Assembly: GCA_047967505.1 (NCBI GenBank)
Contig: CM106538.1
DNA from: Dipteris shenzhenensis
Lineage: Eukaryota
Strand: one strand, 5' to 3'
DNA length: 64,000 nt
Shown piece after piece: positions 24,980-64,000 of this stretch (position 1 is the stretch's first letter; each line of letters opens with the position of its first letter). A program made the position numbers and the translations under genes. Under the pieces are notes generated by a model. That model was not told the DNA's origin. It saw only the letters and a list, made by a program, of their open reading frames with translations, and made no database searches.

Positions 24980-25331
24980 TGAGAAAACATGTGTGCCTCA
25001 GGACCTATGGAGCACTCTAAGGTGGATGGAACCTGTGTGGAAACATGATGAAGAGAGTGCTCATGACATGTACCTCAAGTCAATTAGGTTCCAAGATAGA
25101 TTAGCTTGGACTCATTTCTCTACTCAACAATACATGATAGGCCTCTTATATAGAGAGTGCCCTTGGAATAGTCAACACTTGTGGGATCCTCTGATCCACA
25201 TCTCTTCTTGTGGATATCCTTGATCCACATCTCCACATCATGTAGTCCACATCTTAGGGTGGCTACTTTAATACATTCCTATACCATACCTTAGCCTTTA
25301 ATCTATGTGCTCATGGCACCATATCTCAACA
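24980..25331 (-). repeat. 5' LTR of the young element
   Basis: 351/352 identical to 22520-22871; adjacent to the PBS. Confidence 0.95.
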
Positions 25332-27140: not shown

Positions 27141-28509
27141 TCTTGTTGTTTTTGAAATTTCTTTTAATATAGTGGATATTCCCATGTTTGTGGGCACATG
27201 GATAAGAACTCTCAATATTATCTTTTGGCATTCAAGCATTAATGTGTATCTTTGAATTTGCTCATGGAGGATAGGTGGTTGTAGGTTCTTCCAATTTCTT
27301 TGGCATTGAAACATTGATGTGTAACTTTAAACCTACATATGGAGGACAGGTGGCTATAGGTTCTTCCAACTTTTTTGGAAGGTCTTACAAAGGTTTAGGA
27401 TGTAAAGCAGACCAATGTACTTAGATATAAGTGGGCAATATTGACTACATCACTCATGAAGAATTTTTGAAGAGGTGAGAAGCCTACCTCCTAGTTTTGA
27501 GGCTGGAAGAAGAGGAAAAAGGAAGAAAGAAAACAAGACCAAGTTGGCAAGCAAGGTTTCTTGTGTTCTACCAAAATGTGTAATGAGCCAAAAGCTTTAA
27601 TACTTAGCTTTTATACATAGGAATCTTTAACCTTGATTCTCCACTAAGCCTTAATCTCACTCACTAAGTCCAATGTGGGCTTGTAGCTTCATCCTAGCTA
27701 GTTCTAGTGGAGGGAAGAATGTAGTTGGCTCTTTCAATAAATGATATTACAAGAAATTTTCACAAATATACACTGTATTTAGCAATGTCAATCAATGTGG
27801 CTAACATGCTCCCCTTCCTAAGGTCAATCTAGTCCCTTGGATCACTCATGTCCATTGGAGTGGATTGTCGTCTTATTATAAACATGTGCCATGCCAATAG
27901 CATGTGAACAATTCTACAAAATTGTGTAGTGTGGACTCAGTGTGGATTCCAAAATTGAGTCTCAAGGAGGTCTCTAGAATGTCTTCAAAGTTGATGATAT
28001 GATGCCCATTGAGATTCCAAAGTCAGAAGTAAAGCCGCACCATTTGCTTTAGTCTTAGGCATCTGTCGATATGCTTGATCTCTTTTCTTGTCAGTGGGCT
28101 TCCTTTTATCCAAATTATGATGATCCAAATAAACCTCATAGTGGGCATCATTGCTACATCAAAAACTTTACAATGCTTCATGATAAAATCATCCATTCTC
28201 TCACACATGGTGATGACTACTACTACCTCATCACCTAGAATGTGGGGGAAGTTGTTGTTGGCTCTTTCCCACGGCTTCCGTAGAAAGAGCAGGATATTCT
28301 CAATATGCAAGGTTCCAAGGCTTTTTGTCACCTACAGATATATCGGGATTGTCATTTGTAGTATACGTGTAGCTTAGGACCTCGAGTCGTTTTTCGGTGA
28401 GAGATGTAGGCTTAAGTGTGGTAACCAAACATAGTGCATGCATGTGTGAAAGGAACGTGCATCATCATGGTTGAGGTAATGAAGGCTTTTGCCTTCATTG
28501 GGGGTTGCA

Positions 28510-28660
28510 GGGTTTAGGAGAAGTTTAAGGGTTAGAGGGAGGTTTAGGGTTTAGAAGGAGGTTCCAAGTTTTAGAAGGAGGTTCCACAGTTTAGAAGAGG
28601 TTCCAAAGTTTAGAAGGAGGTTCCAGAGTTTAGAAGAGGTTCCAGGGTTAGAAGGAGGAT
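28510..28660 (+). repeat. Telomere-like (TTTAGGG-related) repeats grading into a 19-20 bp minisatellite GTTTAGAAG(G)AGGTTCCA
   Basis: GGGTTTAGG, GGTTTAGGGTTTAG, then about 6 copies of the unit. Confidence 0.75.
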
Positions 28661-30149
28661 CCTAGTACAAGCGGAGCTTTGTCGCTACTCTACACACACA
28701 TTCTGTACTACCTAAGTCCATGTTGGCACTGAGACAACATACTCCTAGATCCATTTTATTACCCATCCTTGGGTTCTGGCTTATTGTGAGTACGTACTTG
28801 GGTTGCCATGCATGCAGTCCAGTGGCTGTGGAACTTGTGTCGTGCCAGTCAATCCTGCGGTATAGCCTTGGCACCATACAATTTTTGTTTAGTTTCCAGG
28901 TAAACTATATCCACCATTTGTTCGAACAGAGAAACACATATCCAAAAATATTGATTTAATCACCTCTTTTAACACTCCTCCCTACATTTTTATGACTTCA
29001 GGGGTGCTAGTGTGTGGAATATCAAAAGATGTGGTTATTATGGAAAATTGTGAAGCAAAAGTGGAAGGTGGTTAGGACAGACTGCTTGGTGTGTGAAAAA
29101 ATGGAGGTGGGGTGGCCTTGTAAGTGCAAGGTCTAGTGCCCTTTTCTAATAATGTCTATTTTCTTGTGGGATAATTGTTGTTAGAACCGTTAGTTAGACC
29201 ATTTGCATTGACATTAGTGAAGTGAAAAATGCCCTCCTATGTACTCCACTCCTTTTCTCATATGTTCTCGGGTGGGGCACTTGTTGGGTTATTTGTCTCC
29301 TCATCCAATGCTTTCACTTTGTCATCAAGTTCTTTTATACTTTGCTTTTACTTGATGGTGGCTTGGAATTTTTCTTATAGTTCTCTATTGTAGGCTTCAA
29401 CCTCCGCATCTTTTGCTTGGAGCCTTTGTTGGAAATCCAATTCTACTTCTGCTACCTCTATTTAGAAGTCTTTTTTACCTTCATGGGATGTTTTTCTAAT
29501 CCTTGGATCTTTCTTTCAATTATTCATTCCCTTTGCTAGATGCATAGCAAAAGAGGCAAAAGAGGCTCAATAACACAGAAAAGGCAAAGCAAGAGCAGAT
29601 ATGACTACAACAGCAAAATAGTTTGACTGCAATCAGAAAGATGTGTTGCAAGGAATTATAGAAATACAAAAGGATGGAAATGATGATAGATATGCAAAAA
29701 AGACAAACCATAGGAGATCAGTAGTAGCTGATACATTTGATGCACAACAAGAAAGCAAGAGTCTGGACCACCAAAGCAGATCCTCCTAAAGCAGATATCA
29801 AAATTCATGTCAAAATCCAATCGGATTCCGTCCAACAACCAGAATGCAGTAGCAAAGGGCAATTACAACATAATGTGGAAGAGGATGTATCTAATATGTA
29901 TGATAACACCTAATACTGAGGAAGGAGACCATCCAAAAGGCAAAAAGCCTAGGGCATCTTGATACTTTGTTTAAAGAGCTATTACACTCAAAAGTGAAAA
30001 ATCACATTGGACCAACTATTAAATCTTGTACGAGCTTTCAAGGAACAATTGTTTCAAGGTTTGGAAGGAGACAAACAAAAAAAAGCACCACAAGCTATGC
30101 TTGAAGAGGATGAAGAGGAATCTCCAGAAATCTATACATCAACAATAGA

Positions 30150-36800: not shown

Positions 36801-38549
36801 ACACTAAGCCATATTAATATATAAAAGAAAAATAACAAACATTGAAAATGTAAAGGGAAAAAAATACCCATACAACAAGCATTGGTCACAAAATGTTGAT
36901 GGGTTATTCTCTATTTTCTCAACACAATTGTATAGTTGGACTCTAAACGCAATACCAAATGCATAGCAACGTTGTGTATAGGAGTTTGATCTCTAATTAG
37001 AAAACCTTCAATAGTGATAACTACACTACTTCAGCATTTGCTTTTAACCAAGAATCACTAGGACGGTGCAGTATTTGTACTACAACAAACTTATCAAGGG
37101 AGCCTCACATTGTGGGTTGTAATACCATGCTTGTGTACGCAACTATTTGTACGCAACTATTGTAGAACTATACCGAGCAAGCCAACAGCAATTATAAGTG
37201 GGTGGGCAATGTGAGGCCATGTCTAATGATATTGTCTATGTTGTGTTGACAACTGAGAGACCATGCCTAATGATGTTGTTTATGTTATGCCAACAACACA
37301 ACAAACCTAAAGGAAAAGAGAGGCAAACCTACATTGACCTAGAAAACAAAAAGGCTTGAAAAACATGGTAGAACTCGAAATCAAAACTCAACCCTACACC
37401 CGCATTGATCGATGCAAGGGCAAGCCATAATGTTGCTAGTCTCTACCCCCTATGTCACCTAGCTCCTCTCCTACCTTTGGTGTAGAACTTTATTCTTCTT
37501 CTTCTATCCATTTTGCGCCGCACACATTATTCTCCACTTGAATTTTTCATCATAGATTCTCTTGTTGAGCTTGATTGAGACATGATTCTGAGCTCAATTC
37601 TCTCGTACATTTCGGTCGATGTTGCCTTAATCGTTTACTATAGCACGCTGAGTTGGTCATCTTATGGTCAAATTGTCCTTTCACCACCTCTAGTAACTCG
37701 GGTAACATATGCTCAACCCATGTATGCGTGAGAACCCACCAAGTAGCTAGCCTAATACCTATTTACACAGCTTTCACCATCAATTAAATTGCGAGCCGCC
37801 TTTGTATAGCCACATTATCGTAATTATACTATCTACTCTCCTCTAGGATGCTAGCAGCCACAAACAAATCTGTCAGTTTTCGTCAAAGTAATCACCAAGG
37901 CAATGGTTCTTTACACGCTGCCAGCTACCGTCGTTGGATCATGTGTAGCCTACATCTTGGTATTACCTATAGTCCACGAACAAAATCATTTGCTACTAAG
38001 AGAACTTAATTCTCTCATCAAGTTCGACTGACACACAGCCAACGCTATCAGCCTGCGAATAAAATTTTCTACGGGCCAATGCAGTCATCTCTTTGAAGTG
38101 CCAAATGCAAGATGACGAGATTAGACACGGACACATGGTTTGTGCCACTGGCTTCCCAAGACCATATCCCCGAGACTACTTCCTATGCTCGAACCAACTA
38201 TCGAACTGAGCCTTCTTTACCAACTTGGCCACCTCATAGAACTGAACCTTCGAGGCAAAAGTTTCCTTGCAAAATGTGTGCAATAGATATGGATAAAGAA
38301 GCGCTCACACTGTGGACGTACTCGGCTCGGGATACCTACCTGTTGGTTTCTGCAACTACAAAGCAGGGCAAAATCGATTTGCTCATTTTTTGCCTACCCT
38401 GGTAAGTGGGTAGGTCATAGTAACGATTCAAAGCCTAAGAATGGAAAGTCACGAACCGCATTATTTTATTGAAGGTTTATTAGGTGGCGTTAAGGTATTG
38501 GCGGGGGGCGAAATACCAAGCCATGTGTCTATGAGAAGTGAGTGACCCT

Positions 38550-39680
38550 TTTGGAGAGCGTCCACTGTGGGCAATTGACTATCAGTCCATTTTGGGGAAC
38601 CGACGCTTGGATTGTGCGTGCGTGGAGGCGAGTAGAGGTATCCATCCTCTCCATTTCTAGTTGCGCGTTCCGTTCAATCTTCCATTCTGTGGCGTGTGTC
38701 TTCAACCTTGCGAATGTCTGGAGCGCAGCGAGTTGTGGAGTCTATGAATACCGGGAGCGAAACGTTTGGTAGATGTACCTAAACTACTCGTAACGTTCTT
38801 CGTTCTCTCAAACTAGCGAATAGCAAAGTTGGTCTTTCGATGAACTCTAGAATTCCGCTCGAATAGACTCTGTCTGCCTGTGTATACCATCATTGTTCAA
38901 GGCGATGCGACGTTCTCTTTTCATAAACTCTATCTGCATGTGTACACCATAATTGTTAAAGGCGATGCGACGTTCTCTTTTCATGTGTGCGCTAATATTG
39001 AAGTTAAAATTACGACGATAGCAAAAACAGAGACGACTGAGGAACTTCTATTTCCTTGTCTCTCTGGCTCTCTTGTGAGGCTTCCATTTCCTTTTCTCTC
39101 TGCCTCTTTTGTGAGGCTTCCATTAGGGCTCTCTGTTGAGCCTGGATGAGAGAATTGGTCAACTCCAAGAGCTGCTCGTTTCGCGTTCTATTGACTCTCA
39201 ATTGAGGCATGTCCACTTCTAGCAATCCCAGAATTGACAACACTCGATCTTTGTCGTGACCTGGTAGAGACTATCTTGGTTAGAATTCATTTGGTAGAAT
39301 TAGCATAGAGAGGAAAACAGAGCATATCGTGGGGAAAACGAAAAACTCACCTTCAGAACAATGGCGCCTATCTGAGATCTCCTGCAGTACTATGCCTATA
39401 AATTGAACAAGGGGATAACGCGTCATCTCTAACTGATGTTGAGAAACAGTGAAATCTATCATATACAGTTGTGACCCGTCCAGTGGTTTTGAGCAATTTC
39501 CACACTGTTCTGGAAATCCTTTCAACGTGTCCGAGATTAGCCCTTTGGAGCAGGAGTATGCGTACACCCCGGACTCGTACCATGAGGAGTAATAATAAAT
39601 CTCAGGCGTAACATGATAAGGAAGCATACCCTTTCTTTTCTGTCGGCATAAAAGAAGCAGACGCATATATATGTCATCTC
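38550..39680 (-). pseudogene. Unknown, probably spliced and decayed gene with a CxxC motif (possible Helitron accessory gene)
   Basis: Protein-like segments YSCSKG...CGNCSKPLDG...(SEG then GTGAG donor), LLEVDMPQLRVNRTRNEQLLELTNSL and QTESIRAEF...QTFARLKTHATEWKIERNAQLE, with stops. No family recognised. Confidence 0.35.
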
Positions 39681-40379
39681 TAAGGCGGCTCCCGTATAGT
39701 TTACTATCGCCACAAGCAGGCTCAGTTCCACGAATAAATTAGTGATTCGCAATTCTCAATTCAAATTCCATTGAGACGCTCTGTTTTTTGTTCGCTTGTC
39801 GAGAGCTGAAGAAATATGACACGAACGGAGGGTCCTGCTACGCTGATGATGGCGATTCATCCGAGGTTCACAAGGCTAGCGTGGGCACCGAAGTAGATAC
39901 AAGTACTAACGAGTATGTGCTCCATCGCAATAGCAGTTCGTTTCGTTGAAGTCACTCTTCCTAACCTTGATCATTGCGAAGCAGTAATACTAGTCAATTG
40001 CGCTGCTACATGCATGATTACTTCTTCTTTGCCATGCACTACCATAGATGTGCGAGTGGACGTGCTGAACGTGAAGAGTGTTTCTGAGAAGGGTGCTGCT
40101 TTCAACAAATTGGTTGGCGTGAAGAAGAAGAAGTCATCTCGCTGAGGAGAGGCTTCGAGGCTGTGGCTGAGCAGGCATACACGAGGGTAAGGTGTAGCAT
40201 TTTGTTTGGTTTCCTTATAGAAAAAAATTTGAATGATCGCAACGAGCCTTTTTTTTGCAGTTCGAAAGCTACTTAAGCACGAGCACATAAAAGGCACGAT
40301 AAAGTGCGCTATGAATATTTATATTAAGAAGAAACACCCACAACTATGTTTGACTCAAGTGTCATCGTGTAGAGACCGA

Positions 40380-42230
40380 ACGAGGGTTAACTCTGTCATT
40401 AAGGATACCATCTTTTGTATCATCATTGTGCATATTTCCAACCAAAAAAATAAACGAGGGAGTTTACTTGTCATAAAACACATTGCCAAAGTCAGCCTGC
40501 TTCCCTTCCATCCATGTTTTGAATTCCTGCTCGTTAATAATATTCAAGCATTAAATCCCTCCTTCGTTTGCAATCCACTTTTTCTAATGGCACCCAACGA
40601 AAATTATATATTATAAAGGTTTCAATCACTGCGAATGTTTGTTGTCAAATCGCCACATTCAAGGGAAATTTTCATGTGCACCGCTCACCCATAAAAGACC
40701 ATTTTCCAGATGTATGTAATCTACTAAAACTATGCGTTCTTGACAATTCCAAATGCAAGGAATGATAGCACATACACTAGAAATAATGGGATAATATGTT
40801 TGGCAACTATTAGTCTTTTAGCAAGAGATAGCTTCTTAGATGCCCACTTACTAAACATTCCCTCATATTTTCAAAAGCAGTAGTCAGGTATGTCTTTGAA
40901 AAAGATTCCCAGCCATAAAAGCGAGAGTGGATCCAGACGAGCTTGGCATTAGAAGGAGACCACATCCAAGAGGTCACCGACTATGGACGAGGCGTTTTCC
41001 TCATCTAGCTAAGCTCCCCCGACACTACCTCGACACTTGTGGAGCAAAGCCCCATCCTCCTCGGTCCACATCTTGTTTACCTCTTTCCTTGGTATCATGG
41101 GTTCACAGTGGAGGACATGGATAAGACACACCATGTTCCACGTTTCCTGGTTACACTTCGCTTCGTGCACAGTAGTTTGCTCCTTCACGATTGCGTTGCC
41201 TACAACTATGACCAAGAGAAAGGGGCTTCAGGGGGTTGCCAAGGCGCTATTATAAAGGGGGGTCGACCAAGAAAAATTTCATACCTTGACACAGGTGCAC
41301 GGGTTACATGTGATGCTCATAATTAGTGCTGGTTATGTTGCATTGCCTATGGAATTCAAATTCGGTGGCTAAGGTTTTAATTCTTCATCTGATTGTTTTT
41401 ATGGCTTCTATAAAGGGAATCTTTTTTAAAGACATACCTGACTATTGCTTTTTAAAATATGAGGGAATGTTTAGTAAGTGGGCATCTAAGAAACTACCTC
41501 TTGCTAAAAGACTAATAGTCGCCAAACATACTATGCAGTTATTTCTAGTGTATGTGCTATCATTCCTTCCTTTCACAGGGAGTGCACTGATTGCCACTGA
41601 TATAGTAGTGGCCCCTGCCACTGGAGGAGGTGACTGCCACTGATATAGTAGTGGCCCCTGCCGCTGTAGGGGCTGATCGCCACTGATATAGTAGTGTGGC
41701 CCCTCCTGCTGGAGGAGGTGGCTCGTGCTGTTCCTCCTTTGGGGCCACTTGGTCAACCTCTCTTTGCAATTGGCCCTCTGCCTGTGATGCTTGCAGGCCT
41801 GTTTGCTTGGGTTCTTTTTAACTTGGGTCGAGTCCCCTTCTGAGGGGGTAACCCAAGGGGTCTTAGACTCTTGTTGCTCCTGCCTGAGAGGACGTTGGCT
41901 CGGACCTACTGACTGCGTCTACTGTACAGAGGGGGAGGGGAGGCGCATGAGGGAGGCCACGGGGGCAATCTCTGGCGAGGTGACCCATCTGTCTGCACCG
42001 AAGACACTACATGGTAACCCAGAAATCTCCACCCTCTGGCGAAGTGTGCCACCTTCAAGGGTCTCGAGAAGGATCAACTCTGGGATGGAGGGACTCTGGG
42101 CTCTCAACCACCAGTCTGATCCTAGTGACTCCATAATCTGCTAAAACTGAGGCGGCCGACTCTGGCAGGGACTTGAGCACTGTGCTAAATGCCCCACCAA
42201 TGGAAGGGAGGATGGCTCGATACTCCTTGG
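40380..42230. mobile_element. Rearranged LINE fragments: ORF2 pieces as an inverted pair (40757-40920 minus, 41397-41568 plus), DUF4283-like ORF1 piece (40925-41170 plus), ORF1 CCHC piece (41770-42230 minus)
   Basis: SKWASKKL(S/P)LAKRLIVAKH on both strands; YGRGVFLI...PILLGPHLVYLFPWYHGF; QCLRCRQMGHLARDCP on minus at about 41960-42007. Confidence 0.75.
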
Positions 42231-42239
42231 AAAACAAGC

Positions 42240-43681
42240 TAGTGTCACAAGATGCTCCCCCCAGCATCCATGCATCATGCAAAGCCCTCGTTTCCAATGT
42301 CGCCAAGCCATGCAATTCGAACTCACTGCCCATAGTGAAGGTCAACGCCCTTTCTGAGTACATTGATTACCGATTCGCATTTGAGGGAAGAGTGCTATCG
42401 AAGTATGGCATGTTCAAGGCCGAGGACGCTCCCTATGCAACATATATGCGAGTTGATCTGACCGATCGCGACTACTAGCAAATAGTAACCCTTCATGTTC
42501 CACACATATATGTGCCCCAACTGAGGGATGTTCTAGAGGTAGATGGCTTCTATAGAATAGAGGGCCCAGCCATTGCTGCAAAGTCACCAGGTGAAGGTGG
42601 GACATCCTTGATCTCCCTACGTGTTGATGCAACCACCACTGTAATTAAAGGCAAGCCTTTTGATGGTCTCCATCCTTCATTCTGGACACCACAATCAGTT
42701 CATGTGCCATGGGTTTTCCAACAAATGCAAAGGTTCCCTTCACAACTGTAATGAAGACAATTGCTTTCGTGGTGGTGAAGGTTGACCTTGAGGGCCCTCT
42801 ATCTGACCAGATTATTATTGCAGATGGACCAAACCCAAAAGATCGCGCAACAGTACGTCTTCAATTGTCTATGAATCCACCCCCCCCCTTTTTTTGCGAT
42901 TAATTGCTAACACGCTTTTTCCACGTTTACACAATTGTCATTCGTTTCAATGATCAGAGGCCAAATTTAACGCGCATCATCCAAGAGTTCAACGAGGAAT
43001 CTATTGTCATGTACATCACACAAACTATTTCATACATGTGTGGCTATATTCGACTTTACCATTCTAGCAGATCTGCCAAAAGGAAGGCTTCGATACACCT
43101 TACAAGAAGCATTTGCACATCAAGTATCTAACCTTGGCTACGATCAGCAGGTGAAACTGTTCTGAGTTTGATTGCATGCATCTATTCTCATGTATGTATA
43201 TGCACAACTATAGTCTCTAACTGTGGTCCATACATGTGGACAAGTCAATGGAGTTTTGCAATTCACTGAGCTGAATGGACCTCTCGTCGAATTCCAGTGT
43301 GGTAAGTGCTCAAGCTCCCGCGTAAGCCGTGACCCAGCCAAACCATTCTCCTACTCATGCGCGAGCACACAGGACGTCTTCACACTTGCCTTGCTGAAGG
43401 GCCGAATTGTGCTATACGATGGTTTCGAGGTTGATGTAAAGCTTCATGGCTCCACTGCAGAGGACGTTTCAGGCCTACACCAATCATTCATGGAGTACCA
43501 TAGCCAAAGCATGGTCGCGACACAAAATTTGCTAATGGACCATCATCCTTCAAGCCAATTCACAATCAACAGCTCCGAGTTCGTCACTGCATTTGTGCGA
43601 GACGCATATGCAGTCTCGGTACTCGACATGTCCTTGCTATACATAAACATGCGCTCAACCTTTGTACATAGTTATTGCTGA
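42240..43681 (+). pseudogene. RPA70-like multi-OB-fold ssDNA-binding protein gene, decayed and spliced; Helitron-associated
   Basis: N-terminal part FEGRVLSKY...YMRVDLTD...LEVDGFYRIEG is OB-fold-like; C-terminal part FQCGKCSSSRV...YSCAS...GRIVLYDG..VDVKLHGSTAEDVSGL resembles the RPA1 DBD-C zinc ribbon; a GTACGT donor lies at about 42853. Judged by pattern only. Confidence 0.55.
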
Positions 43682-44799
43682 TCTGGTACAAGGTTGTCGT
43701 TGGGGAGGAAATAAAATGTCTCGTGCCACATGATTGTGCCGTTACTTTCAAAACTTCACCGTACTGTGTCTTTTTTTTTGCAAGACACAACCCCCCCCTT
43801 ACCACCTCCTTGGCGTAAAAGCAAAACCCCTATTTTTATGTTGCGTATAAATCCGAGCACACCAACAAGCTATATATGCTTCCAACAATAATATGTTTCT
43901 CTTGTATTTCCACACCATGCACCCAGAATTCGCTTAAATTTTTAGCTAGGCCCATGGATAGTGTTTGCAAGGAAACGATACATGGTTGCATCGAGACAAC
44001 CTCCGACAATATCGTATGCGATGGAAACCGTATGGTTTGCAAGCGAAAAACAACAAACATACTGGACTGTGTCGTAGCGCTTAATGGAAAACATTCATAC
44101 AAATATTTACTGGGCATCTTACACGGTCACATCTCCACAACAACTTGCAAAGCCACATCCCCTTAGTGCCAGCCGAGGCCTACACCACAGTACGAGGAAA
44201 TTGTTGCGCCAACGAAGGATGAGGTCATGTACCTTTTGCAAGGTTCCTCCACATCCAGGTCTCTTGTCCACGATTTCTTGCTACGCTTGGTTGAGGCGAT
44301 TAGTACGTCTTTCACTCTTGTCTTGCGTGACAGTGAATCAGTCATTCATCGGGCTGCAATCGATAGTGGACATGCAACCGCAAATCACAACATACTAATG
44401 AATGATTGGGCTTGCTCCCCTTTCGTCACCCCATGGTATGTGGACTGGGGGAAAAGGGCCTACATGCACTGGTGCACAGAAGATGAGCTGCGCTTGTAAA
44501 CACTTGTGAGTAGCCTGGCTCAATTGCCTGCAAGCAAGGTTGCTTTGCTGTTCAATGAAGCAACAGAGCAACTGCCAATACGCCATCTCTAGCGTTTGCA
44601 GCAAGATCTATAAGATCAAGTCTACATGCGCCAACAATTTTATCCCTGTAATGGTTTCGAGATTGTGCAACTCCCATGCAAGGTGCTCCCTCCAACTAGA
44701 GTTATAGGTGGGAGACCAACGTACCACAGATCTTGAACTTGGACATCCGAGGAGGAAATGCAAAGAAGCTACCAGAAGTGCCCAACATACAACACCAAC

Positions 44800-47700
44800 A
44801 TACAAGACACACCTAGGTATCCTTGCGCAAGCTATAAGACCCTCAAATTTGCTGCAAATTTGAAGAAGCTCCCTGTCTAGTTCATGGGTGTTTCGATATT
44901 GCTTGAGGATGCACCTGTCGAACTAACATGCACAAAACCATACATTTGCACCCTATGCTTGTTGCAGGAATTGTGAAAGACAAAACACCAACTTTTTATT
45001 TGAAAAACATGCCAATCCAACCTCCAGCACTACATGTATCTACTCTCAATAGGGTTGAGCAAAGACTCGTGGCTATAAGGCTGCCATTTGCGCAGATTCG
45101 TGAGCTGTCATATGAGGGCCAATATGGATTGCATGGGAGTGTCGTCAACGTGTTCGCAGACACTGACAGGGCACAGCAAGTACTACCGAGGTTCCTAGCA
45201 GACAACACGACAATCTTGGTTGCGATTAAGTGCAAGTTGGAATACACGGACAACTACATGAGTGGTGTCGTGCGGCCTACAAAAACCATGCAAGCAATGC
45301 ATAAACTTATACAGACACCGCTATACAGAGAGAGTGGAGTAAAGATAAATCATGTTTGGATAGAGCACATAGAGAGCATGCAGAGCGACGCAAAGGCTTC
45401 TGAAAGCACAACCACCATGGGAGAACAAACCTGCCAAGAGAACAATGTCGAGACAAACACGCTCGTGATGGCATATACACAGCACAATAGGTAGTTGACT
45501 TCCAGGATAAACCAATAGTCGTTGCACCATCAAAAGGGTTCTCTCCACCACTGAGCGTTTTTAAAGACAAGCATTACAAGGAGATGGCGTTCCCTAGATG
45601 TTTTATAACCACATGCGTTCTTACAAACTCCCTGAGCGTACAAGCTACCAAAGGATCGTGAAGTGGGAGTTGACAAGCCAGGACAGACGTTTTGCAACCT
45701 GCGTAGATAATATTTTCTTCAAGACAATGAAAGTTCTTGTACGTCACGTTCTATCGTCCACATGAGTTTGAAAACGAGAAGGGCAACTTAGAGGGAGAAC
45801 TATACAAGCTAGGGACACGCTCACTCACACGAACATAGAAAAATTGCTCCATTTAAACATTGGGTACTGTGACTTTACATGCCTTCGCACTTCGGCAAAT
45901 TATAAGCATCGCTTAAAGAAAAACTTATTCGGCATGCTGCGCCATCTTGGCCTTCATCGCTTTATCGGCTATGGAACGATTGTGGATCCCCCTCCTGCAA
46001 TGCCTTGCTGACTTGCAACAGCTTGTCCTTCAAGACTTGACTAAGAATGGCATACACAACATGATACGTAACGACCCCATCAATATAGCTAGGTACCACA
46101 TTCACAAATTCAAGGCCCTCAAGAATTTACTCAAGAAAGACCACTCCATCCTAGGACCATTCATTGACTTCTTATTAACAGAGTTCCAGAATAGAGATAG
46201 CCAACATGACCACCGGCTTCTATGGTATGACAACGCCCCAATTATTGGTCATGCTAAGAATGAGGTCATAGCATACATTGACAAATATATCACAACAGAT
46301 CTCTCTTTGTTTGACCTCCCAAAGAAAGAAATACAAACGCACAAGCATACAAAGACATGCAAGCAACGGGGTAAGGCTTGCAGGTTCGATTTCCCGAGGC
46401 CACCCATGATTGAAACAATGATTTTGTACCCTCATCCAGAGGACAGTGGAATGCAGGCAGCAAAAGCTAACATGAAGAAGATTACCAACCTAATGCTGGA
46501 GGAGGGCTCACTACAACTAGGTTTCGATATGTTCTTACAGAAACTTGGATTCTCTTACGATGACTACGTCAATGCGCTAAGGAGTAAACTCTACCAGCCA
46601 ACAATTCTACTCAAGTGGCAGTCGAAGGATAACTTCACAAACAATTTCAACCCAACAATATCCAAATTTTGGTACAGTGTGAACGCTGATATACAATTTG
46701 TCTTGAACCCCCATGCACAGTGGCATCTTATTACATATCATACATGATGAAGATGGACAGGGAAACCACGGAGGCAGTGAGGAGCGCTCTCAAGGCAAGC
46801 ATGGCCGACGACTCACCAACGAACGAGCGCATAAGAAATGTCGGGAACGCAATACTCAACACACAACACATAAGCTCACAACAAGCTGCGTACCTTTGCT
46901 TGTTGCTCCCTCTGACAAGTGCCACCAAAGAATTCTACTACATTAACACAATCCCTCCCAAGGAGCGGACACTCCTACTTAAGAGACGCACCCAGCTTCA
47001 AGCAATTGATCCTTCTAGCACAAACATTTTCTTCGATGATGTTATCAAAAAGTATGTGCACCATGCAAAGAGGCACTTGGACATTTGCCTCGCTACTTAC
47101 GCCAATAAACGCAGCGTACCAACGACCCAAAAACAACCAAGGAAAAGAGGAAAAATAATACGCTTCAACAACTACAATAAGACCAAGATCCGAAGAATCA
47201 TTACAAAGAATTGTGCCTGTTATACCTTCCTTTCCTTCACAGCGAGCACACAATATCATATGAATTTCCAACATGGCATGACATGTACCACTCGAATGCT
47301 GAGGTCATTGATGCTCAATTTAACAAAACCTCAATGTGCAGAGCGTTGCACAACAGGCTTGAGCCATCAATCTCTACAACCAACAACGAATCTACAAACC
47401 ACAGCTACGCGAGCGAGGAAAATTTTGACTTGGGATTGGAAATGAACATGCACGAGGCAAACACAACACGACGCGACCAGCAACAACCCTCACAGGCTTT
47501 AATGCCTAACCACCAATTCTATGGACTATTGAGAAAGCTTAACAATGAGCAGCGAGCAATCATCAACAACATCATGCTCAAAAAGATTAGCGAACCTAGT
47601 CAACAATTCCACCTCCTGCTCTCTCGAGAGGCAAGTACAAGTAAAACCTTCACACTCATGCTCTTAGTGCAAGCACAGCTCCGCTTCTACTCGCACAAAG

Positions 47701-48827
47701 ACACATCAAATGTAGACTTGCCCAAGGCAATCTTGGTCGCATACACTGGAAGAGCCACTCACGCTATTGGTGGGATGACTATACATGGAGCTTTCCACCT
47801 TCCACTACTTTCATCGGCCTACACGTCGCTTTCAGCAGAGAAACTACAATAGCTGTCAGAAGCATTCAAGGAAGTACAGCTACTGGTCATTGACAAAATT
47901 TCCCTGGTCGGCATCAATACCTTCATTGCCGCAAACTCCCGCACGAGAGAAATCAAGCACAACCACGACCAACCTTTTGGGGGCGTCAATGTTCTCCTAT
48001 GTGGAGACCTGTACCATGCAAGCCCAACCAAGGACTCCTGGATTTTCTATAGCAAACATCCTCCTTCGAACATGCTAGGTTCCTTTTGGACAAGCAAACT
48101 TTTTTACTACGAGCTACGACAGCCCGTGCAGCAAAAAGGCCCCCATTTCCTTGCATTGCTCAACAAAATCAGGATAGGATGCCAAACAAATGCCGACCTT
48201 GACCTCTTAAACAATGAACATTTCAAAAACCCACCAGTTAAGCACAACATTCCTCAGCTCTTCTACACAAACGCCGCAAAGGACGACCACAACGAAAATT
48301 TTTTCAACACCCTGCAAACAGAACCACGCGTGCTACTTACAAAGGACATTTGTCACAAGACATGCAGAGTCACGGAGGTTTGGGTGTTGCAACTTACTTT
48401 AGACCAAATCTACAACTTATCCAACAGACTCAAGTCCAGGTTGACGGGTACCAAATCCTTCTTGCAATGTTCAAAAGTCATGAAAACAAAAGAACAGGAA
48501 TACTTCACACGTACAAGTCACCACAAACAAAATTGCCAACGCTGCTGCAAAACATGCACAACCTCATGCAACTACTCCCGCAGTCTGCACTACATTTGCA
48601 CTCGGTGACTTCAACATTGACATCACCCGCCCTCCACAATGATGGCACAACTGCAAGGCTTCATGGTCCACCACGGCATGCGCCTGCTCAATAAAGGACC
48701 TACGACAATCTCCGGATCCGGAATAGACCATATCAGGTGCAACAACATAAAAATCAGCACACACACGGGACGGACATTCGCATATTGGTCTAACCACATG
48801 CTACTCCATGCAGAGACATCAATTTGA
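44800..48827 (+). mobile_element. Helitron2/Helentron-type RepHel gene remnant: DUF6570-like region, HUH Rep, PIF1 helicase and C-terminal AP (EEP) endonuclease; many stops and frameshifts, internal deletion
   Basis: EQRLVAIRLPFAQIREL..GQYGLHGSVVNV; RNDPINIARY; EFQNRDSQHDHRLLW (HUH); QTHKHTKTC..CRFDFP; NADIQFVL..ASYYISYMMK (YxxxY); LNNEQ, decayed Walker A REASTSKT, AYTGRATHAIGGMTIH, VIDKISLVG, PFGGVNVLLCGDLY; EEP motifs YKSPQ, LGDFNID, PTTISGSGIDHI and YWSNH. Confidence 0.9.
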
Positions 48828-50829
48828 ATCAAAGCGTTTTCCCCAAATCCATATCTATACCAAAGATCACAGGCAGGTGGAGGATGCATAGCCTTGCATC
48901 CATAAATAGAATGAATTAATCACCGAGGAGGAAATTTTTCTAGGGAGTGGAAAAATTAAGGAAAAAGGGGAAACGAAAGATGAGGGGGAGAGGGGTATAG
49001 GGGCCTCCTGACATTGATTGCTAAATATTACAACTCCCTATTACGAAAATCAGTTGGCCCACCGACGACATCAAACCTACTTTCATGTCTTGAGTTAGTA
49101 TTGCGGGCCAATTTGTCCCGCAATTCCTCAATCTCAACAGGGCAAGCCCACTGAAAAAATTCACCTTGTTTAAAGGTCAATTGGAATCGGGAAGCCCAAC
49201 AATTGAAAAACCTAGGTCAAATTGCTACATCGATGTAAATTTGACATCCTCTTTCAAGGAGAAGGGGAAGAATCAGGACAGGGAATTGAGAGATTGTAAT
49301 TCTGAGGTAGAGCTTTCCTCAAAAGTGATGGATGAAAAGCTAGGGCATTTTTCCTTGCAATCCTCGAAAGGAGCAACTGAAGAATAGAATAAAATGTAGA
49401 TGGGTAGTGTGCGCCGTTGAATTGTTCCAAGAAGTGCCAGAGCTCAACTTGCACAAAGAGGAAGGATGGTGAGATTTCTCCAAGCAGGGATTCAAGAAAT
49501 ATGGAGCATAGGAGTCATCATGTGAAGCAACCATCGTCAAGAAAACAATATCCCGAGAGAACGAAAGAGAAAGAGCTTTGACCACCCTTCATGGCTATGG
49601 CAGATCAAACCCCAGGAGTAGAACCACCTCGCTCACAAGAGTGACCTCTTGACGATCATGCTTCTCGACACCAACCTTCAGACGATCAACCAACTGCGCC
49701 GAATGGGTACAAAATTCGGAGCTCAAATCCATCCCCTTGCTGATACACAAGCATTTCGAGTTTACAACGCATGTTGTTCGTCACATTACATGTCTTCTCT
49801 GTTGTTTAATGGACGTAAGGCCATGTTCTATTTCCTTCACAAAACGAGCCTTTAACCATAGCTCAAAAGTGCTTCCTACCCGAAAGAAGTATTTTTTTTT
49901 CTGTAGGTGTTCCAGGGGTCTCCTTTTGAGGCCTACTATTTGATTGATTTGAAAGGTGTATCATGAGTTAACATTCTGCTTGCTTTTGATGAAGAAAAGC
50001 ATAGGCTGTTGCAAAGCAAAGGCAGTCAGGCAAGGCTACTGATTCAGAGAGACAACACAAGAAACACTGAGTTTGAGGGATAAATTTGACTTAGCATCTC
50101 AAGAGGCCGGGCGACGGACCGTGGTTTCAAAAGAAGGCTGAAAATGCAGATTGATGACTTGTTTTCGAAGAACGAAAGTTCTAAAATATCTGAAGGAAAA
50201 TAAGACACTATAATTTTTATACGAGGCGGAACACAGCTTTAAGATTTCTTCATCGTTTGAAATCTTTGCAGCAGCTAAGAGTGTATGGATCACGGCATTT
50301 CTTTGTTTTGTTGCACTATGACATGCTAATTTACCTAGACTATAAGCACAACCATTTGGTAGGGCAAAATGAATATCTAGAGCTGAAGCATTGAAGAAAG
50401 CATGCACTGACCGTCATATTCATAATATTTGCAATAGCCGAGGTAGAATTACAACTGCAGGCTTCTAATGGAGCAATTCGGGAAGAAAGGGCGACCTTGG
50501 AGTTTGTTCGGAGACAGCTAGAACAAGCGCAAACAGATCTCTTCTCAAATCGAACTCCTTGCTCCCAAAGTTTGCGAACGAAATCTATCTACGCGACTCC
50601 AAAGAACAATGACCACAACAAAACACGAATTCACAAGGCAGACCAACATAGCATCAAAAGAACACACGAAGGAACGAAAATAGCAACAAATGGGCAGGAG
50701 AAGCACGAGCAAGTTGACAGATAGACAAGTTGAGTCAGCAACATGTAATAAAACTAGCCAGCAATGTGTGATAAAACTAATAGAGGGACAGTTTCTGAAA
50801 AAGTGTCAAAAGAGCACTCCCTGCAAGGC

Positions 50830-51500
50830 AGTGCTAAACAAAGAAAAAAGTATAATAATACAAGACATTATGTTGGAAAAAAGAAAAGATAGCAATAACC
50901 AATACATTATTCTTTTGTCCAAAAATGCAAGAACAAGCAAGACTTACACTCTACATGTGATAGTACAAGCGTCATGACGACATTACTCCCATAAAGCCAA
51001 CACAAACGTTGAACTCCCCCGAGTACTTCTACTAGCATACACAAGTAAAGCAACTTTCAACATTGGTGGAACAACAATTCACTCTACATTGCACCTACCT
51101 CTTCTCATGTCCAACTACACATGCCTTTCAACAACGGTCACATTGCAATATGTTTCAATGCTATATCAAAACCTAGAATTAATAGTTCTCGATGAAATTT
51201 AACTGATTGGATTAAACACCTTCATTGTCATTGACATGCGCATGAGAGAAATTAGGCATAACCACTCAAAACCATATGGAGGGATCGATGTGCTCTTGTG
51301 TGGAGATCTTTGCCAAGGAAGCCCGACAAAGGATAGCTGGATTTTCTCTCAAAAAAACACATCCTTTGCAATAATGCCATCCATATGGCGAGAAAACGTC
51401 TTGTACTATGAATTGATTCAACCAATGAGGCAGAACACCATACCGTACATTGACATGATCAATAAAATAAGATTAGGATAGCAAACAAAAGTAGACCTCC
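50830..51500 (+). mobile_element. Second, diverged PIF1-type helicase fragment of a related Helitron2 family
   Basis: LNKEK..IIQDIML, RTSKTYTL, LAYTSKATFNIGGTTIHSTLHLP, VLDEI*LIG, KPYGGIDVLLCGDLCQ and YYELIQPMRQ; collinear with 47535-48200. Confidence 0.85.
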
Positions 51501-51769
51501 TTCACGGAAACATAATGAACAGATCTCTCAATTACAGGTTGAATTGGATGATCACATCAGAGATGTTGGGAGATGTACCAACTCCAACATGGACCTACAA
51601 GCTCAGTTCTTACCTTCCTTATTCTCTATCAAAGATGAACCTGCAAGCTGACTGTACACTTTTCCCTTCTGCCTAGGAGTTATCTCGATGCTGTCATGTC
51701 ACTATGGGAAGCAGATTTTGGCCTTTTTCCTCTAAGCAGGAAGTATTTTGCTTACATGCTAGTTAATAT

Positions 51770-54700
51770 CATGGTTGTTAAGACACTCGTGTCTTATGGT
51801 AAGACACTTAAGACACTTAAGACACGTGTCTTACCTTAAGACACGTTTAGACACGCTCCAAATTTTTTTTATAAAATTAAAAAAACCCTACGTTTTGGAC
51901 AATGGAACCTTAGACTTTGCATTTTCGTTTCGCCGTACAAGCCGTCCGGTTCCGTACGCTGTTTCGCCTCTCCCGCTGCAGCAAACTTCACGTACGCTGA
52001 CGATTTGCCGTACAAACTTCACGTACGTACCGTACGGACTCGAGTCTCGACGTACACACGTGACACCCCGTACAAATCCGCCGTACATCGTACGGATCCG
52101 CCGTACACTGTACGGATCCGCCGTACACTGTACGGATTTACTGTAGTCTCAGGTCTGTACGTTACCTTCTGCACCTGCTGGTTTCGGTGACGACCATCGA
52201 CGTTGGAGGCTGGAGCTCAGCCTGCCTTCAGGTTCACATTGTACACACTGCATCGTTTTCTTCAGCCTTCTTTTAGCTTGTTATATAGTGCTGGCTCCAC
52301 TCTGCATCTTGCTTTCTCCTTTCCCAAAAAATTGGGCCAATTATGGGCTGATTCCTGAATCCTGAAATCCCTAAGAAAGTTGGCCCTCTTCTGGGTTTGT
52401 TTCATATAAGAGCCTGCTAGAATAACAGTAAATTTAAAGGGGGCAAAGTATGGGCTGAAAGCCCTAATTAATTTGGCCTCCTTAGGGCTGCATAGATGAT
52501 AGCACCTTATGCATTAGACTTGTCACTGCTTAATGCTTGAGCCTTCAAGCTTCTATTGCAGCTTGCTTCAAGCTTGGCATGTGCATTTCTCAACACAATT
52601 AGTCTATAGATTGCAGTTCACTTGCTTGTTCTACTTCTCCCAAAATTTATATTGAATTATGCTCGTGTGCATGCCAACATGACAGGTCGCAGGTCATAGC
52701 AGCAGAGAATTACAGCATAGCAACAGAGAATTACAGCATAGCAGGCTGCAGCAGAGATTTACCATGCCTAAACCTCCAAATCCACTTTGGGGGATCCATA
52801 CCACTATGATTAACCCCGCTGTGGCAACGGGGTCAGGAAACAAAGAGTGGAAATGCAATTATTGTGGTGAGCCTTTTGTGAGCTCAGCGACACGTCTTAT
52901 TCTCCATGTGTCTGGACTTGGTGGTAGGGGAATTGGTGGATGTACTTCTGTTCCTTTTGAGATTGCGCAGAAAGTTATCAGAGATCATCCAAAACTTTGT
53001 GGTGGACCTAGTACCATGCCTGCTGCCTTGCAAGATGAGGATTTGTTGGGGCCTGAGTCTCACACTATCAACCTTGATGATGCTATGGATAGTGACTCTA
53101 GTGCTATTGGTTCCTCTCATGCAAAGAAGAGGGCCAGGAAAGAGGGCATTGCTTTTGCTACATCCTCACAACCATCCACCACTATGGCTACTTCGAAAAA
53201 GCACCAGGGGACTTTATCAGGTGCATTGTCCACACAGTCTTGGCAAAAAGAGCGGCAGCATTTGGCAGATATTGAAATTGGGAGGACTGTGATTGAATGC
53301 AATTTTGCTTTCAATGTCCTACAAACACCACAGTGGAAGAGGATGATCAAGGCAGTGGCAGCTGTGGGAGCTACAGATACATGGACAGGTGTGACATATG
53401 GTGCGATGAGGACATCTGTGTTGGAGGAGGAGATAGGCAGAATTAACAAAGCTCTTGATCCTATCAAGGAGGGATGGAAGAAATTTGGTTGCAGCATTCT
53501 GTCTGATGGTTGGAGTGATGTTAGGAGGAGGGGCATCATTAATATATTGGTATCCTCATGCCTTGGTACGTACTTTTTGAAAGCTGTTGATACAGGTCGA
53601 GGAGGTGCTAGCACTACAGGTGAAGTCATTTTTCAGCATATCCGAGCAGCTATCATTGAGATAGGGCCTGAGAATGTGGTCCAAGTTGTTACAGACAATG
53701 CAAGTAATTGTGTGAGGATGGGAGAGCTTGTGGAGGCAGAGTTTCCTTCCATTGTATGGACTCCTTGTGCTTCACATTGCCTAGACCTTCTCATGGAGGA
53801 CATCGGTCGGCTCCCTTGGATTGCTAGTGTGATGCAGACTGCTAGTACCATTGCAGCCTTCTTTAAGAAGAAGCCCAAGGCCTTGGCCATATTCAGGGAG
53901 CATAGCAACTTGGAAATTGTCCGGCCATCGAAGACACGCTTTGCATACATGCACATTGTTTTGGAGCGCCTTCTTGCAGTGCATGCAGCTCTTCGACAGA
54001 CAGTGGTGTCTCGGATGTGGTTAGAGTGGCCTGACTCTACCAGGGCAGAGAGCATGACGGTACAGAGGATGTGCTTGGATCACTCACTTTGGACTGACAT
54101 GGAGTCCATAGTGAAAGCTCTCCATCCTTTATTCGCTGTCTTGCGGGTGACTGATATGGAGGGAAGTACTCTTGGCTTGGTCCATCATTTCATGGAGCAG
54201 TTGCGTGTTTCGCTGAGTACATGTAGCTCCCTCGCACCTGAGAGGTAAGGTTGGTCTATGTCCATTATATTAATAAGTAATGAATCATCACTTATCATAA
54301 ATCCATTATCAGTGACAAGTGTTTATTATAATTTACAAATTATGTTGATATGTAGATTGGAAGAAATAAGGTCTCTAGTGGATACGAGATGGCAGTTCAT
54401 GTGTAGGCCCATCCATGGACTTGCAACACTTTTGCATCCACTGTTTAAGTCAGCTGATTTATTCAATAAGCCAGAGTTATTGGCGGATAGAGATGCCTAC
54501 ATAGGGAGGGTTTTTTCAGAGGATGAGCAATTGGAGCTGGACTTGGAGCTTTCTCAGTATCAGAATAGTGTGGGTGCTTCCTTCTCTAGACCCACGTCTA
54601 GAAGGAAAGAGATTTGTGTGAAGCCAATTGAGTGGTGGGAGACATATGGCTACTCCACTCCTCGAGTGCGGAAGTTGGCTCTCCGGATTTTATCTCAGGT

Positions 54701-56067
54701 GAGAGCTGAGACATATATCTTTGAAGTTTGGCATTTGCTATTCCTGGTTAGGTAAAGTTTAAACTGTAAATGTAGATGATGAGTGATCTTGATTCTCACT
54801 CCTTTAATCTCGATTTGTAAATACTAAATGCCAATCGGGATTTGGAACCAAATGGCAAAAGGAATGTGCAGCAGGAGCATGCGAGAGGAACTGGAGCTCC
54901 TACTCTTTGATCCATACGAAAATAAGGAACAAGTTAAGCACAAGGCAACTCGAGCGCTTAGTATACTGCCGTGCAAACTTGAGGCTTATAAGAAAGCTTA
55001 AAAACTTGGCAGGTCCAATGCAGGTAACATTGGTAGCTACTAGCTTGAGTCTATTGTAACATGTTCACAGTTCTATCATCTATGATTTCGATTTTAAATA
55101 TATCTAGGAAATTGAAATCATAACAATGAACATTGAACATAATAACATATGCTTCATTGCTTCTAAATGTTGTTGCAGGTGGATCCTACAACCATTGACA
55201 TAACCGAGTTGCCTACTTATGCTAGAGTTGAAGCTGATGAGGAGGAGATATATGCACAGCTACATAGAGAGCTAGAGACCATAGATAGACGAGTCACTCG
55301 TTCACGTCGTAGATCAGCAGCATCAGCCATTGCTATTCCAGCACAGAGGGACACATCAGAGGGCAGGGGCAGAGGCAGAGGCAGAGTCAGAGGCAGGAGT
55401 GGTGGAAGAGGAGCACGAGGTCGTGGTTGTGCCATCCGACGTGGCCATGGGAGAGCCGTGGCTATGGCCAGTACCTCGTCAGATACTCCTATGCGGTCTG
55501 CCTTGGACGAGGAGGAGGGGGAGGATGAGGAGGAGGAGGAGGAGGATGAGGTGCCCGAGGAGCCACAGTATGATAGTGAGGGTAACACTATCACTGATGG
55601 TGACTTTGGATCCAGCAGTGGCACTGACCTAGCAGATTCAGAGTCCAGACTAGGATGAGTCTTGAGAGACTTGACTCTTGACTCAGATTCAGACTAGGAT
55701 GAGTCTTGAGATTCAAAAGTTTTCCATTCAGTTATATGTATGAGGATTCAGATTTCATTCAAATTTCATGTGGCATTGGCCGAGTTATTTATGACATATG
55801 TTTAAACTTTATTGAAGACTATGATGATTGACTCTTAACTACATTGTACTTCTAAAATGTTAAAACTTAAAACTAGCAGCTAGTCATGCAGCATGCTACA
55901 TTGCTACCAAGTTGTACTTATACATACTTATATTTTTAAATTTAATATTTATTTAATATTCTTATAACTGGAAAACGTGTCTTACGTGTCTTATCTTTAA
56001 GACACTTTAGACACTCGTGTCTAAAGCGTGTCTAACGTGTCGTGTCTTAACGTGTCTTACAACTATG
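51770..56067 (+). mobile_element. Full-length hAT DNA transposon (4298 bp) with TIRs and subterminal AAGACAC/GTGTCT and CCGTAC repeats
   Basis: 5' end CATGGTTGTTAAGACAC versus 3' end GTGTCTTACAACTATG (reverse complement CATAGTTGTAAGACAC). Right flank CTAGTTAT, left flank CTAGTTAATAT (8-bp TSD with 3 extra bases on the left). Confidence 0.92.
52764..55658 (+). CDS. hAT transposase (BED zinc finger, DUF659, hAT dimerisation domain), about 821 aa; exons 52764-54244, 54356-54698, 54862-55023, 55179-55658
   Basis: In-frame GT-AG splicing (1481+343+162+480 = 2466 nt). Motifs WKCNYC, SILSDGWSD, VVQVVTDNASN, WTPCASHCLDLL, TRFA, WWETYG..TP.VRKLALRILSQ and CERNWS; RG-rich and acidic tail. Confidence 0.9.
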
Positions 56068-62442: not shown

Positions 62443-64000
62443 TCATAATCCCCACACTGCATGTTCGATGTACTCATCTGACATTGGCTTGATCACAGAG
62501 TCCAACCGTGGCCAATACCCTACCTTTTTCAATAGCTTATTCAAACTCTTCAGCTTAAAACAGATCTCATAAATCTGTGCGTGGCTGTTGCCTCCAACAA
62601 TGAACTCATGCACATTGTTGTCAACCTCAATCCAGGCCATCCCAGGTTTCTTCCATGCACCTGCACTATTTCTAAGCTCTTGAATTTTTTGAATTTCCTC
62701 CCAGATTTGAGAATCTGCATAAATGTTGGACATGAGCACATACCCAGAAGCATCAACTGAATCCAACTGAAGGACTTCATTGAAGCATCGTCTTGCAAGC
62801 TCAACATTGCCATATGTCTGGCAGCTGGATAGCAGAGACATCCACACAATAAAATCTGGAAAACCTGGCATACTCTGAAGGTAATCTAAAGCCTCACTCA
62901 AACATCCGTTACGGCCAAGAAGATCAATCATGCAGCTATAATGCTCCACATTAGGAGCTATGCCATGGACTTTCCTCATACAATTAAAAAACCACCGTCC
63001 TTCCTCCAGTTGGCCAGCATGGCTACAAGATGCAAGAATACTGGTGAATATCACATCATCTGGCTTCAGTCCTAGGTTTTGCATGTCATCCAAACATTGA
63101 CGGGCCAGCTTGAAGTTGCCAAACTGAGCATATCCAGAAATAATTGCACCCCACGATACCACATTTTGAAATGGCAATACATCAAACACTTTGCGTGCAC
63201 TATCAAGGTCACCGCATTTGGCATACATGTCAATAATAGCATTTCCAACGTTCATGTCAGTTTCAAATCCACTTCTGATGATCTGATCATGTATGAGCCA
63301 ACCCTGCTTGATGACTCCTATGCTCCCACAAGCTTTCAAAATGCACAAAAATGTGACTTTGTCTGGGTTCATACCATCATCTTGCATCCTCACATAGAGC
63401 TCAAGAGCAGCAACACCAAGCCCCTGCTGTGCATAGCTTGCAATCATTGAAGCCCATAAAACCACATCCCGATTAGGCAATTCATCGAACACATCCCGTG
63501 CCTCCTCCAGGCACTTACATTTTGCATACAGATCAACAATACAGCTCCCAATGACTACATCCAGCTCAAGTCCGAGACTGACAATCTGTTCATGTACCAA
63601 TCTGCCCTGGCATATTGCTCCTATGCTGCTACAAGCTTTCAAGATGCACGAGAAAGTCTCTTTGCTAGGCACCATTCCCTCAGCTTGCATTTTCTGGAAC
63701 AGCCCAAGGGCACATATGCCATCTCCTTGCTGGACATACCCTGCAATAATTGAACCCCATGAAACCCTATTTCGATTGGGCAGTTTCTCAAATACTCTGT
63801 GCGCTTCTTCCAGGCTCCCACATTTGGCATACATGTCAATCAGCGTGTTCCCAATGACAGAATGTGAAGCAAATCCATTTCTACTGACCTTATCATGTAT
63901 CAACCTGCCCTGCCATATGGCTCCAATCGTGGTGCATGCTTTCAACGCACACGAAAATGTTACCTCGCTTGGTGTTGTGCCCTCTTGTTGCATTCTCTCA
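62443..64000 (-). CDS. PLS-class pentatricopeptide repeat protein with E/E+ extension (organellar RNA editing factor); 5' end lies beyond the window
   Basis: Uninterrupted ORF with repeats VTFSCALKAC, NTLIDMYAKCG and VSWGSIIAGY; E domain HYSCMIDLLGR/WMSLLSSC/GYVLMSNIY; PG box KKPGMAWIEV..VHEF; GYWP; stop comes before the HxE motif. Confidence 0.95.
   Translation of the reverse strand, partial: ERMQQEGTTPSEVTFSCALKACTTIGAIWQGRLIHDKVSRNGFASHSVIGNTLIDMYAKCGSLEEAHRVFEKLPNRNRVSWGSIIAGYVQQGDGICALGLFQKMQAEGMVPSKETFSCILKACSSIGAICQGRLVHEQIVSLGLELDVVIGSCIVDLYAKCKCLEEARDVFDELPNRDVVLWASMIASYAQQGLGVAALELYVRMQDDGMNPDKVTFLCILKACGSIGVIKQGWLIHDQIIRSGFETDMNVGNAIIDMYAKCGDLDSARKVFDVLPFQNVVSWGAIISGYAQFGNFKLARQCLDDMQNLGLKPDDVIFTSILASCSHAGQLEEGRWFFNCMRKVHGIAPNVEHYSCMIDLLGRNGCLSEALDYLQSMPGFPDFIVWMSLLSSCQTYGNVELARRCFNEVLQLDSVDASGYVLMSNIYADSQIWEEIQKIQELRNSAGAWKKPGMAWIEVDNNVHEFIVGGNSHAQIYEICFKLKSLNKLLKKVGYWPRLDSVIKPMSDEYIEHAVWGL

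Follow-up and report, generated by a model that had tools for sequence, protein, structure and literature searches.

Helentrons, for which Poulter 2003 is said to be the reference, were to our knowledge long believed to be absent from land plants. They are recognised by an AP endonuclease at the C-terminus, by S rather than L after RG in motif 2 of the Rep, and by an F/Y-x-R signature before motif 2, which is stated to hold "in most cases" (PMC4067079). Transposition in the family is described as a rolling-circle route in which Rep nicks and joins and the helicase unwinds (PMC8788227), with HLE insertion at TT (PMC11417382), and one passage of PMC8788227 terms the function of the Helentron nuclease undetermined. 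The HELIANO survey of Li et al. 2024 (PMC11417382) reported HLE2 in 13 of 74 land-plant species from six of eight classes, and land plants are among the named hosts of its nuclease-enriched subgroup b. Cases given there include HelenSM92 of Sphagnum and the HLE2 of Physcomitrium, Diphasiastrum, Taxus, Sequoiadendron, Allium, Papaver and Sambucus, all of which share with the locus described below an HLE2-type RepHel in a land-plant genome, as does the Repbase entry Helitron-5_SMo of Selaginella. Which plant families carry the nuclease is not specified in the text of that survey, whose example family carries GIY-YIG and whose figures may show nuclease-bearing ones; Ceratopteris richardii was the only fern screened, and no HLE was detected in it.

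The locus analysed here lies in a 64-kb stretch of DNA from the fern Dipteris shenzhenensis, the whole of which is called the window. We read positions 44760-48827 on the + strand, with a probability of about 0.9, as a decayed and internally deleted Helentron of the nuclease-bearing HLE2 type, a fossil copy in a fern genome. The architecture itself is already known, being that of a textbook Helentron, and HLE2 elements in land plants are already published (PMC11417382). What may be new is the fern host, together with a sub-lineage whose His-Asp-His Rep motif is common to two database proteins, P0002 and P0144. An earlier reading of the same DNA from its sequence only (the sequence-only reading) had called this a poorly characterised plant lineage, which is a fair wording, although the surprise that it implied was overstated given the land-plant HLE2 reported in 2024 (PMC11417382). 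No earlier report of a fern Helentron was found in the literature covered by our search, which left most subscription papers and Repbase outside. The gap left by the single-fern survey of 2024 would be filled by a diverged fern family with a nuclease; in large fern genomes, old families can escape tools that require intact ORFs; and intact copies, if they exist, would allow the role of the Helentron nuclease to be studied in a plant.

Domain order of the element

When the window was aligned on both strands to a profile built from 39 full-length relatives, it was collinear with the profile from position 242 (at 44761) to position 1560 (at 48365). The surviving order, as far as the letters can tell it, is a zinc finger, DUF6570, Rep, the front half of a PIF1 helicase and the back half of an AP-type endonuclease. 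The decayed zinc-finger-like region (44761..44970, +, profile positions 242-312) reached 12.6 bits against a sub-profile built on 25 relatives, and none of 500 shuffles scored as high (maximum 8.3); it is followed by the DUF6570 domain (44979..45359, +; Pfam E 9.5e-11 on the natural ORF, above the cut-off), a domain that upstream of Rep is a published marker of HLE2 (PMC11417382). The Rep (HUH, Y2) runs in three frames over 45598..47184 (+, profile positions 551-1089), with motif 2 at 46181-46213 and the tyrosine motif at 46729-46752; on natural ORFs, Helitron_like_N was matched here at E 3.7e-4, below the Pfam cut-off. Over 47181..48365 (+, profile positions 1116-1560, 267 bits) come a linker and the front of the PIF1 helicase, with Pfam PIF1 matches of 1.4e-4 and 3.7e-7, a decayed Walker A at 47622-47648, a decayed Walker B and one stop at 47850. 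Rep and helicase are thus both present, in pieces but, by Pfam and the profile, collinear with a one-gene order. Last comes the AP-type (EEP) endonuclease, of which the back half is left, spread over three frames at 48365..48827 (+), with its stop at 48825-48827.

All eight motifs named in the sequence-only reading were recovered in place between 46181 and 48797 on the + strand, across three different frames. They comprise, for the Rep, EFQNRDSQHDH (motif 2) at 46181, QTHKHTKTC at 46334, NADIQF at 46682 and the tyrosine motif YYISYMMK at 46729, and for the nuclease, YKSPQ at 48512, LGDFNID at 48601, PTTISGSGIDHI at 48699 and YWSNH at 48783, all on the + strand. Upstream of the zinc finger and in frame with it, a stretch broken by stops (44167..44760, +) may be a lineage-specific N-terminal part, its membership in the element being uncertain; it was unmatched in 80 loci, 252 stored proteins and Pfam, none of its Atlas matches exceeded 0.77, and an Atlas search with the N-terminal ORF at 44167-44496 gave no usable match.

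The ancestral gene would have encoded one protein, which by our estimate had roughly 1,600-1,850 residues, in the order zinc finger, DUF6570, HUH/Y2 Rep, PIF1 helicase and C-terminal AP-type endonuclease. If the mechanism is borrowed from the family, the Rep of the intact element would use a catalytic tyrosine to nick one strand at the end of the element, the helicase would peel the nicked strand off, and the Rep would join the peeled strand into a TT target by rolling-circle transposition. Our guess, at about even odds, is that the Helentron nuclease acts on the target DNA at insertion, by nicking or processing it.

Relatives and separation from canonical Helitrons

With the 276-aa Rep ORF as query, 1859 proteins were found at E<=0.001 in a set of 1.84 billion representatives, and the best 150 were taken forward. 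Among these best relatives (151 stored proteins), 117 of the 121 that could be parsed have the Helentron-type S at the diagnostic position of motif 2. Pfam (E<=0.001) gave Exo_endo_phos or Exo_endo_phos_2 in 16 and DUF6570 in 17 of 26 relatives, which had been chosen for scanning by rank and length. Among 51 long proteins in which helicase motif VI is present, 39 have a tail of 240-340 residues after that motif, and at least one of these 39 tails is apparently not a nuclease: that of P0079, a Helentron-type RepHel, looks by eye like a cysteine protease, unlike the usual nuclease. Of 351 relatives from a metagenome scan, 80 were kept, with a best identity of 38%; 53 of the 80 loci reach motifs V-VI, and 41 of these 53 run on into a nuclease, the other 12 including any that are cut by a contig end. 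A word-index search returned one match for the Rep piece and, for the helicase, 42 matches with identities of at most 35% and no plant among the named ones, and viral contigs yielded no relatives.

Canonical Helitrons (HLE1) likewise encode a transposase of Rep and PIF1 helicase, and the window was compared with controls of that class, namely 28 loci with the GLPH motif taken from bacterial genome records. The read-through of the window gave 425-536 bits with the top 15 Helentrons, 60-82 bits with eight more distant, fungal-type HLE2 proteins (one of them named Metarhizium), and at most 25.7 bits with the canonical-type ORFs from the 28 loci. Whereas canonical Helitrons have L in motif 2 (GLPH), the window has S; and the six control ORFs that were scanned all have Helitron_like_N and none has DUF6570 or a nuclease, in contrast to the window, which has both. 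In two Rep trees (58 and 35 rows), both of them quick searches without bootstrap and with references that are database relatives classed by motif and domains rather than Repbase entries, the window fell among nuclease-bearing HLE2 (SH-aLRT 96), and HLE1 formed a separate clade (100). In the first tree P0079 was labelled as nuclease-bearing (EN) and P0002 and P0046 were absent; P0002 was included in the second. An AU test rejected a clade of the window with HLE1 (p 0.033). A grouping of the Rep with canonical Helitrons, which the sequence-only reading itself had named as evidence against its proposal, was thus looked for and not found, the Rep being nested in HLE2. Identity as a canonical Helitron was rejected because GLPH is absent, DUF6570 and a nuclease are present, the scores are 26 bits or less, and HLE1 forms its own clade. 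Profile collinearity, read-through scores and both Rep trees agree with the assignment to the Helitron2/Helentron group that had been made from the motifs.

The 28 contigs (L081-L108) that bear the canonical Helitron motif 2 come from bacterial genome records of GTDB, several of their ORFs have 1400-1640 aa, and seven of the contigs belong to one Dehalococcoidia MAG. These canonical Helitrons in bacterial records are probably eukaryotic contamination.

A Rep sub-lineage with a His-Asp-His motif

Motif 2 of the window reads R-D-S-Q-H-D-H, with S and not L. Before motif 2 the window reads D-F-L-L-T-E, in which the aromatic residue of the F/Y-x-R signature is there and the R is missing, as the R is also in P0002 and P0144. 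A Q before the first histidine of motif 2 was found in only 2 of 133 parsed relatives, and a D after it in 5 of 133. Because this rare Q/D variant is common to P0002, P0144 and the window, which form a clade (SH-aLRT 99), the odd His-Asp-His motif is a trait of the lineage and not a product of decay. P0002 and P0144 are 46% and 54% identical to the Rep piece of the window and have the same motif, T-E-F-Q-x-R-G-S-Q-H-D, but are fragments (399 and 130 aa) that hold no helicase or nuclease part. This lineage motif was found in none of 108 loci.

The closest described system is Helentron/HLE2 subgroup b, a label which rests on domain content, the sequences of PMC11417382 not being in our Rep trees. 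The order of DUF6570, Rep, PIF1 and C-terminal AP endonuclease is the same, as is the S of motif 2. In contrast to that subgroup, the copy in the window is dead, internally deleted and hosted by a fern, its motif 2 reads T-E-F-Q-x-R-x-S-Q-H-D with no R of F/Y-x-R, and no Herpes_teg_N match was found upstream in the window. It is conceivable, though unlikely, that ferns host a long-resident nuclease-bearing Helentron sub-lineage of their own, set apart by the acidic residue at the centre of its HUH motif (His-Asp-His) and by an N-terminus unique to it, maybe also by an upstream RPA-like gene, and maybe acquired horizontally from a lineage of invertebrates or protists. Such an entry would fit the nesting of the element inside the diversity of these lineages and not beside it.

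Internal deletion and decay

The alignment to the main profile contains a single jump, from position 1560 to position 1837, at 48365, and the frame changes there. The deletion junction (48360..48370, +) corresponds to about 277 missing codons (about 830 bp); across the 39 relatives, the skipped span measures 254-290 residues with a median of 277. The skipped profile positions were matched nowhere in the window, whichever strand was read. The absence of helicase motifs V-VI and an internal deletion near 48360, both proposed from the sequence at the outset, are therefore borne out by the profile jump. The loss is not confined to those motifs, since domain 2B of the helicase and the front of the nuclease have gone as well. 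After insertion, these 830 bp or so would have been lost in one deletion with its ends in mid-helicase and mid-nuclease, which are now joined.

By a segmentation count, the frame changes 9 times over 44167-48824, and there are 8 stops. The fusion of RepHel with an EEP nuclease, as claimed in the sequence-only reading, thus appears true of the ancestral gene but not of any ORF that is present today. The evidence for the fusion comes from distant relatives (30-40% identity). One G-to-A step separates the family residue from the codon now found at the glycine of motif 2, at three of the Walker A glycines, at the glutamate of Walker B and at the last aspartate of the nuclease; a fourth Walker A glycine differs from the family by G-to-C. 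The G-to-A pattern would fit the decay of methylated DNA, and it may be that, after the deletion, the element decayed by frameshifts and by G-to-A changes in catalytic codons, as in a methylated plant repeat. The present copy is, to judge from these lesions, a pseudogene from which no functional protein would be made today.

We also considered whether Helentron parts could have been domesticated or could still be expressed as a host gene, the deletion being an adaptive fusion. Several natural ORFs of 195-276 aa are still open, and both Rep tyrosines and both histidines of motif 2 are retained, which speaks for this reading. The same stretch, however, carries the frame changes and stops counted above, substitutions have hit the glycines of Walker A, the glutamate of Walker B and the conserved motif-2 glycine, and the junction at 48365 is out of frame, which makes domestication extremely improbable compared with a dead Helentron copy.

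A second, diverged helicase fragment of the same lineage lies at 50833..51521 (+, Pfam PIF1), with 61% DNA identity over 692 nt and 51% protein identity to the first copy. The closest database helicase among the 42 word-index matches is at most 35% identical to that of the window, and because the second fragment is closer than this, it is likely that the family diversified within the host lineage.

The nuclease remnant

Taken alone, the nuclease pieces had no match in Pfam, and because of this silence a profile of the relatives was needed. When read through with X at the breaks, the nuclease reached 92.1 bits against a profile made from the C-terminal tails of Helentrons, a score that none of 500 shuffles reached (maximum 5.7), and the remnant consists of three matches collinear with tail-profile positions 119-192, 194-209 and 211-265. 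The stop falls 9 residues past the last motif, the corresponding distance being 7-21 residues in 28 of the 31 relatives in which the motif was found. The AP endonuclease at the C-terminus of RepHel is thus represented by its back half, which is collinear and terminal; as the copy is deleted and frameshifted, that the fusion was in frame is an inference.

A different origin of this piece has to be weighed, in which it would be what is left of an independent LINE, inserted into a Helitron2-type element that had no nuclease and cutting the helicase off. In LINE ORF2 the nuclease continues into a reverse transcriptase, and truncated LINEs retain the 3' end and not the nuclease. The frame change at the junction would fit such an insertion, a LINE-like remnant with no Pfam match was seen by eye elsewhere in the window (17059-19058), and no congruence with the rest of the element was seen: across 39 relatives, nuclease similarity was not significantly correlated with either Rep or helicase similarity (rho of 0.13 and -0.13 in the two comparisons), and vertical co-inheritance is therefore not shown. 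On the other hand, the piece is collinear with Helentron tails, it lies on the same strand and at exactly the usual place of the nuclease in the family, its ORF ends after those 9 residues instead of continuing into a reverse transcriptase, and ORFs of at least 85 aa between 48626 and 50974 gave no reverse transcriptase match. No LINE nuclease that could serve as a control was found in 108 loci, and the LINE origin is set aside only by where the piece lies, its orientation, its early stop and the missing reverse transcriptase downstream. On these grounds we consider it very unlikely and retain the nuclease as a part of the Helentron. A search of the PDB with the 74-aa nuclease piece brought up neither the human L1 nuclease nor other solved nucleases.

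Genomic setting and host

The host of the element was judged from its surroundings. An intron-containing, clade-A-like PP2C gene lies at 13314-15755 on the - strand. The named matches that cover more than 60% of its first exon are all from Adiantum or Ceratopteris, and those from named seed plants, Selaginella and algae reach at most 34%. In a FastTree tree of 30 of the 59 matches plus the window, the window sequence is placed within the ferns (99), to the exclusion of Selaginella and seed plants; this tree represents one gene, and the matches include no named moss, liverwort or horsetail protein, so that by this evidence a fern host is likely rather than certain. The land-plant host proposed from sequence is in agreement with this nesting of a gene from the same 64-kb window among fern proteins.

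Several other features were noted along the window. A PPR protein with an E motif is encoded at 62446-63999 (-), its 518 aa open to the window edge. A hAT transposase (52683-55059, +; DUF659 E 9.9e-47), with a 521-aa open stretch and intron-like breaks, starts just past the second helicase fragment. Degenerate 19-20-nt repeats resembling the plant telomere unit occur at an interstitial position (28501-28685), and an identical direct repeat of at least 300 nt (22520-22819 and 24980-25279, 2460 bp apart) is a candidate young LTR pair.

It could be argued that the element, though real, is foreign to the fern, having come from an animal, fungus or protist by contamination or a misjoin, or that the junction at 48365 is an artefact of the assembly. 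There is a precedent for this concern, since Thomas et al. 2014 were unable to exclude contamination for the few plant matches that they had (PMC4067079). Here, however, the same window holds the fern-type PP2C gene, the PPR-E gene and the DUF659 hAT transposase, the GC content of the element resembles that of its flanks, the diverged second fragment lies 2 kb away and is 51% identical, against at most 35% for database helicases, and the element is heavily decayed. Foreign DNA or an assembly artefact is therefore a highly improbable explanation, and a fossil Helentron resident in the fern genome accounts better for the locus.

Termini and upstream region

Elements of the HLE2/Helentron group have short subterminal inverted repeats and a 3' hairpin, and they insert at TT without duplicating the target. 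A hairpin with a 7-bp stem (48882..48901, +), located 55 nt after the stop, is a candidate 3' terminal hairpin. Such hairpins number 24 in the 64-kb background and, under the same rule, were found within 1.5 kb in 5 of 33 related loci. A subterminal inverted repeat of 11 nt (48866 / 41778) was rejected as being at chance level, its like occurring in 4% of shuffles and in 94 of 1412 natural segments.

Upstream of the element, broken ORFs at 42194..43681 (+) resemble, by eye, RPA-type OB folds, in what we take to be the three-OB-fold pattern of RPA. The HELIANO paper describes an RPA gene upstream of RepHel in HLE2 (PMC11417382). The region 42194-43681 had no match in Pfam or in local searches, 43214-43678 had none in the Atlas or the PDB, and the AlphaFold model of the latter had a pLDDT of 30.

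Between the two Helentron pieces, 1.7 kb (48920-50600) contain stretches that look by eye exon-like and coiled-coil-like, with no match in Pfam or among the stored loci. Further upstream of the Helentron, several short ORFs with no Pfam match lie on both strands at 38097-40616 and could be cargo of the Helentron or of another transposon. They are followed at 40752-41573 by an 822-bp MITE-like element, whose terminal inverted repeats of 159 nt are 92% complementary.
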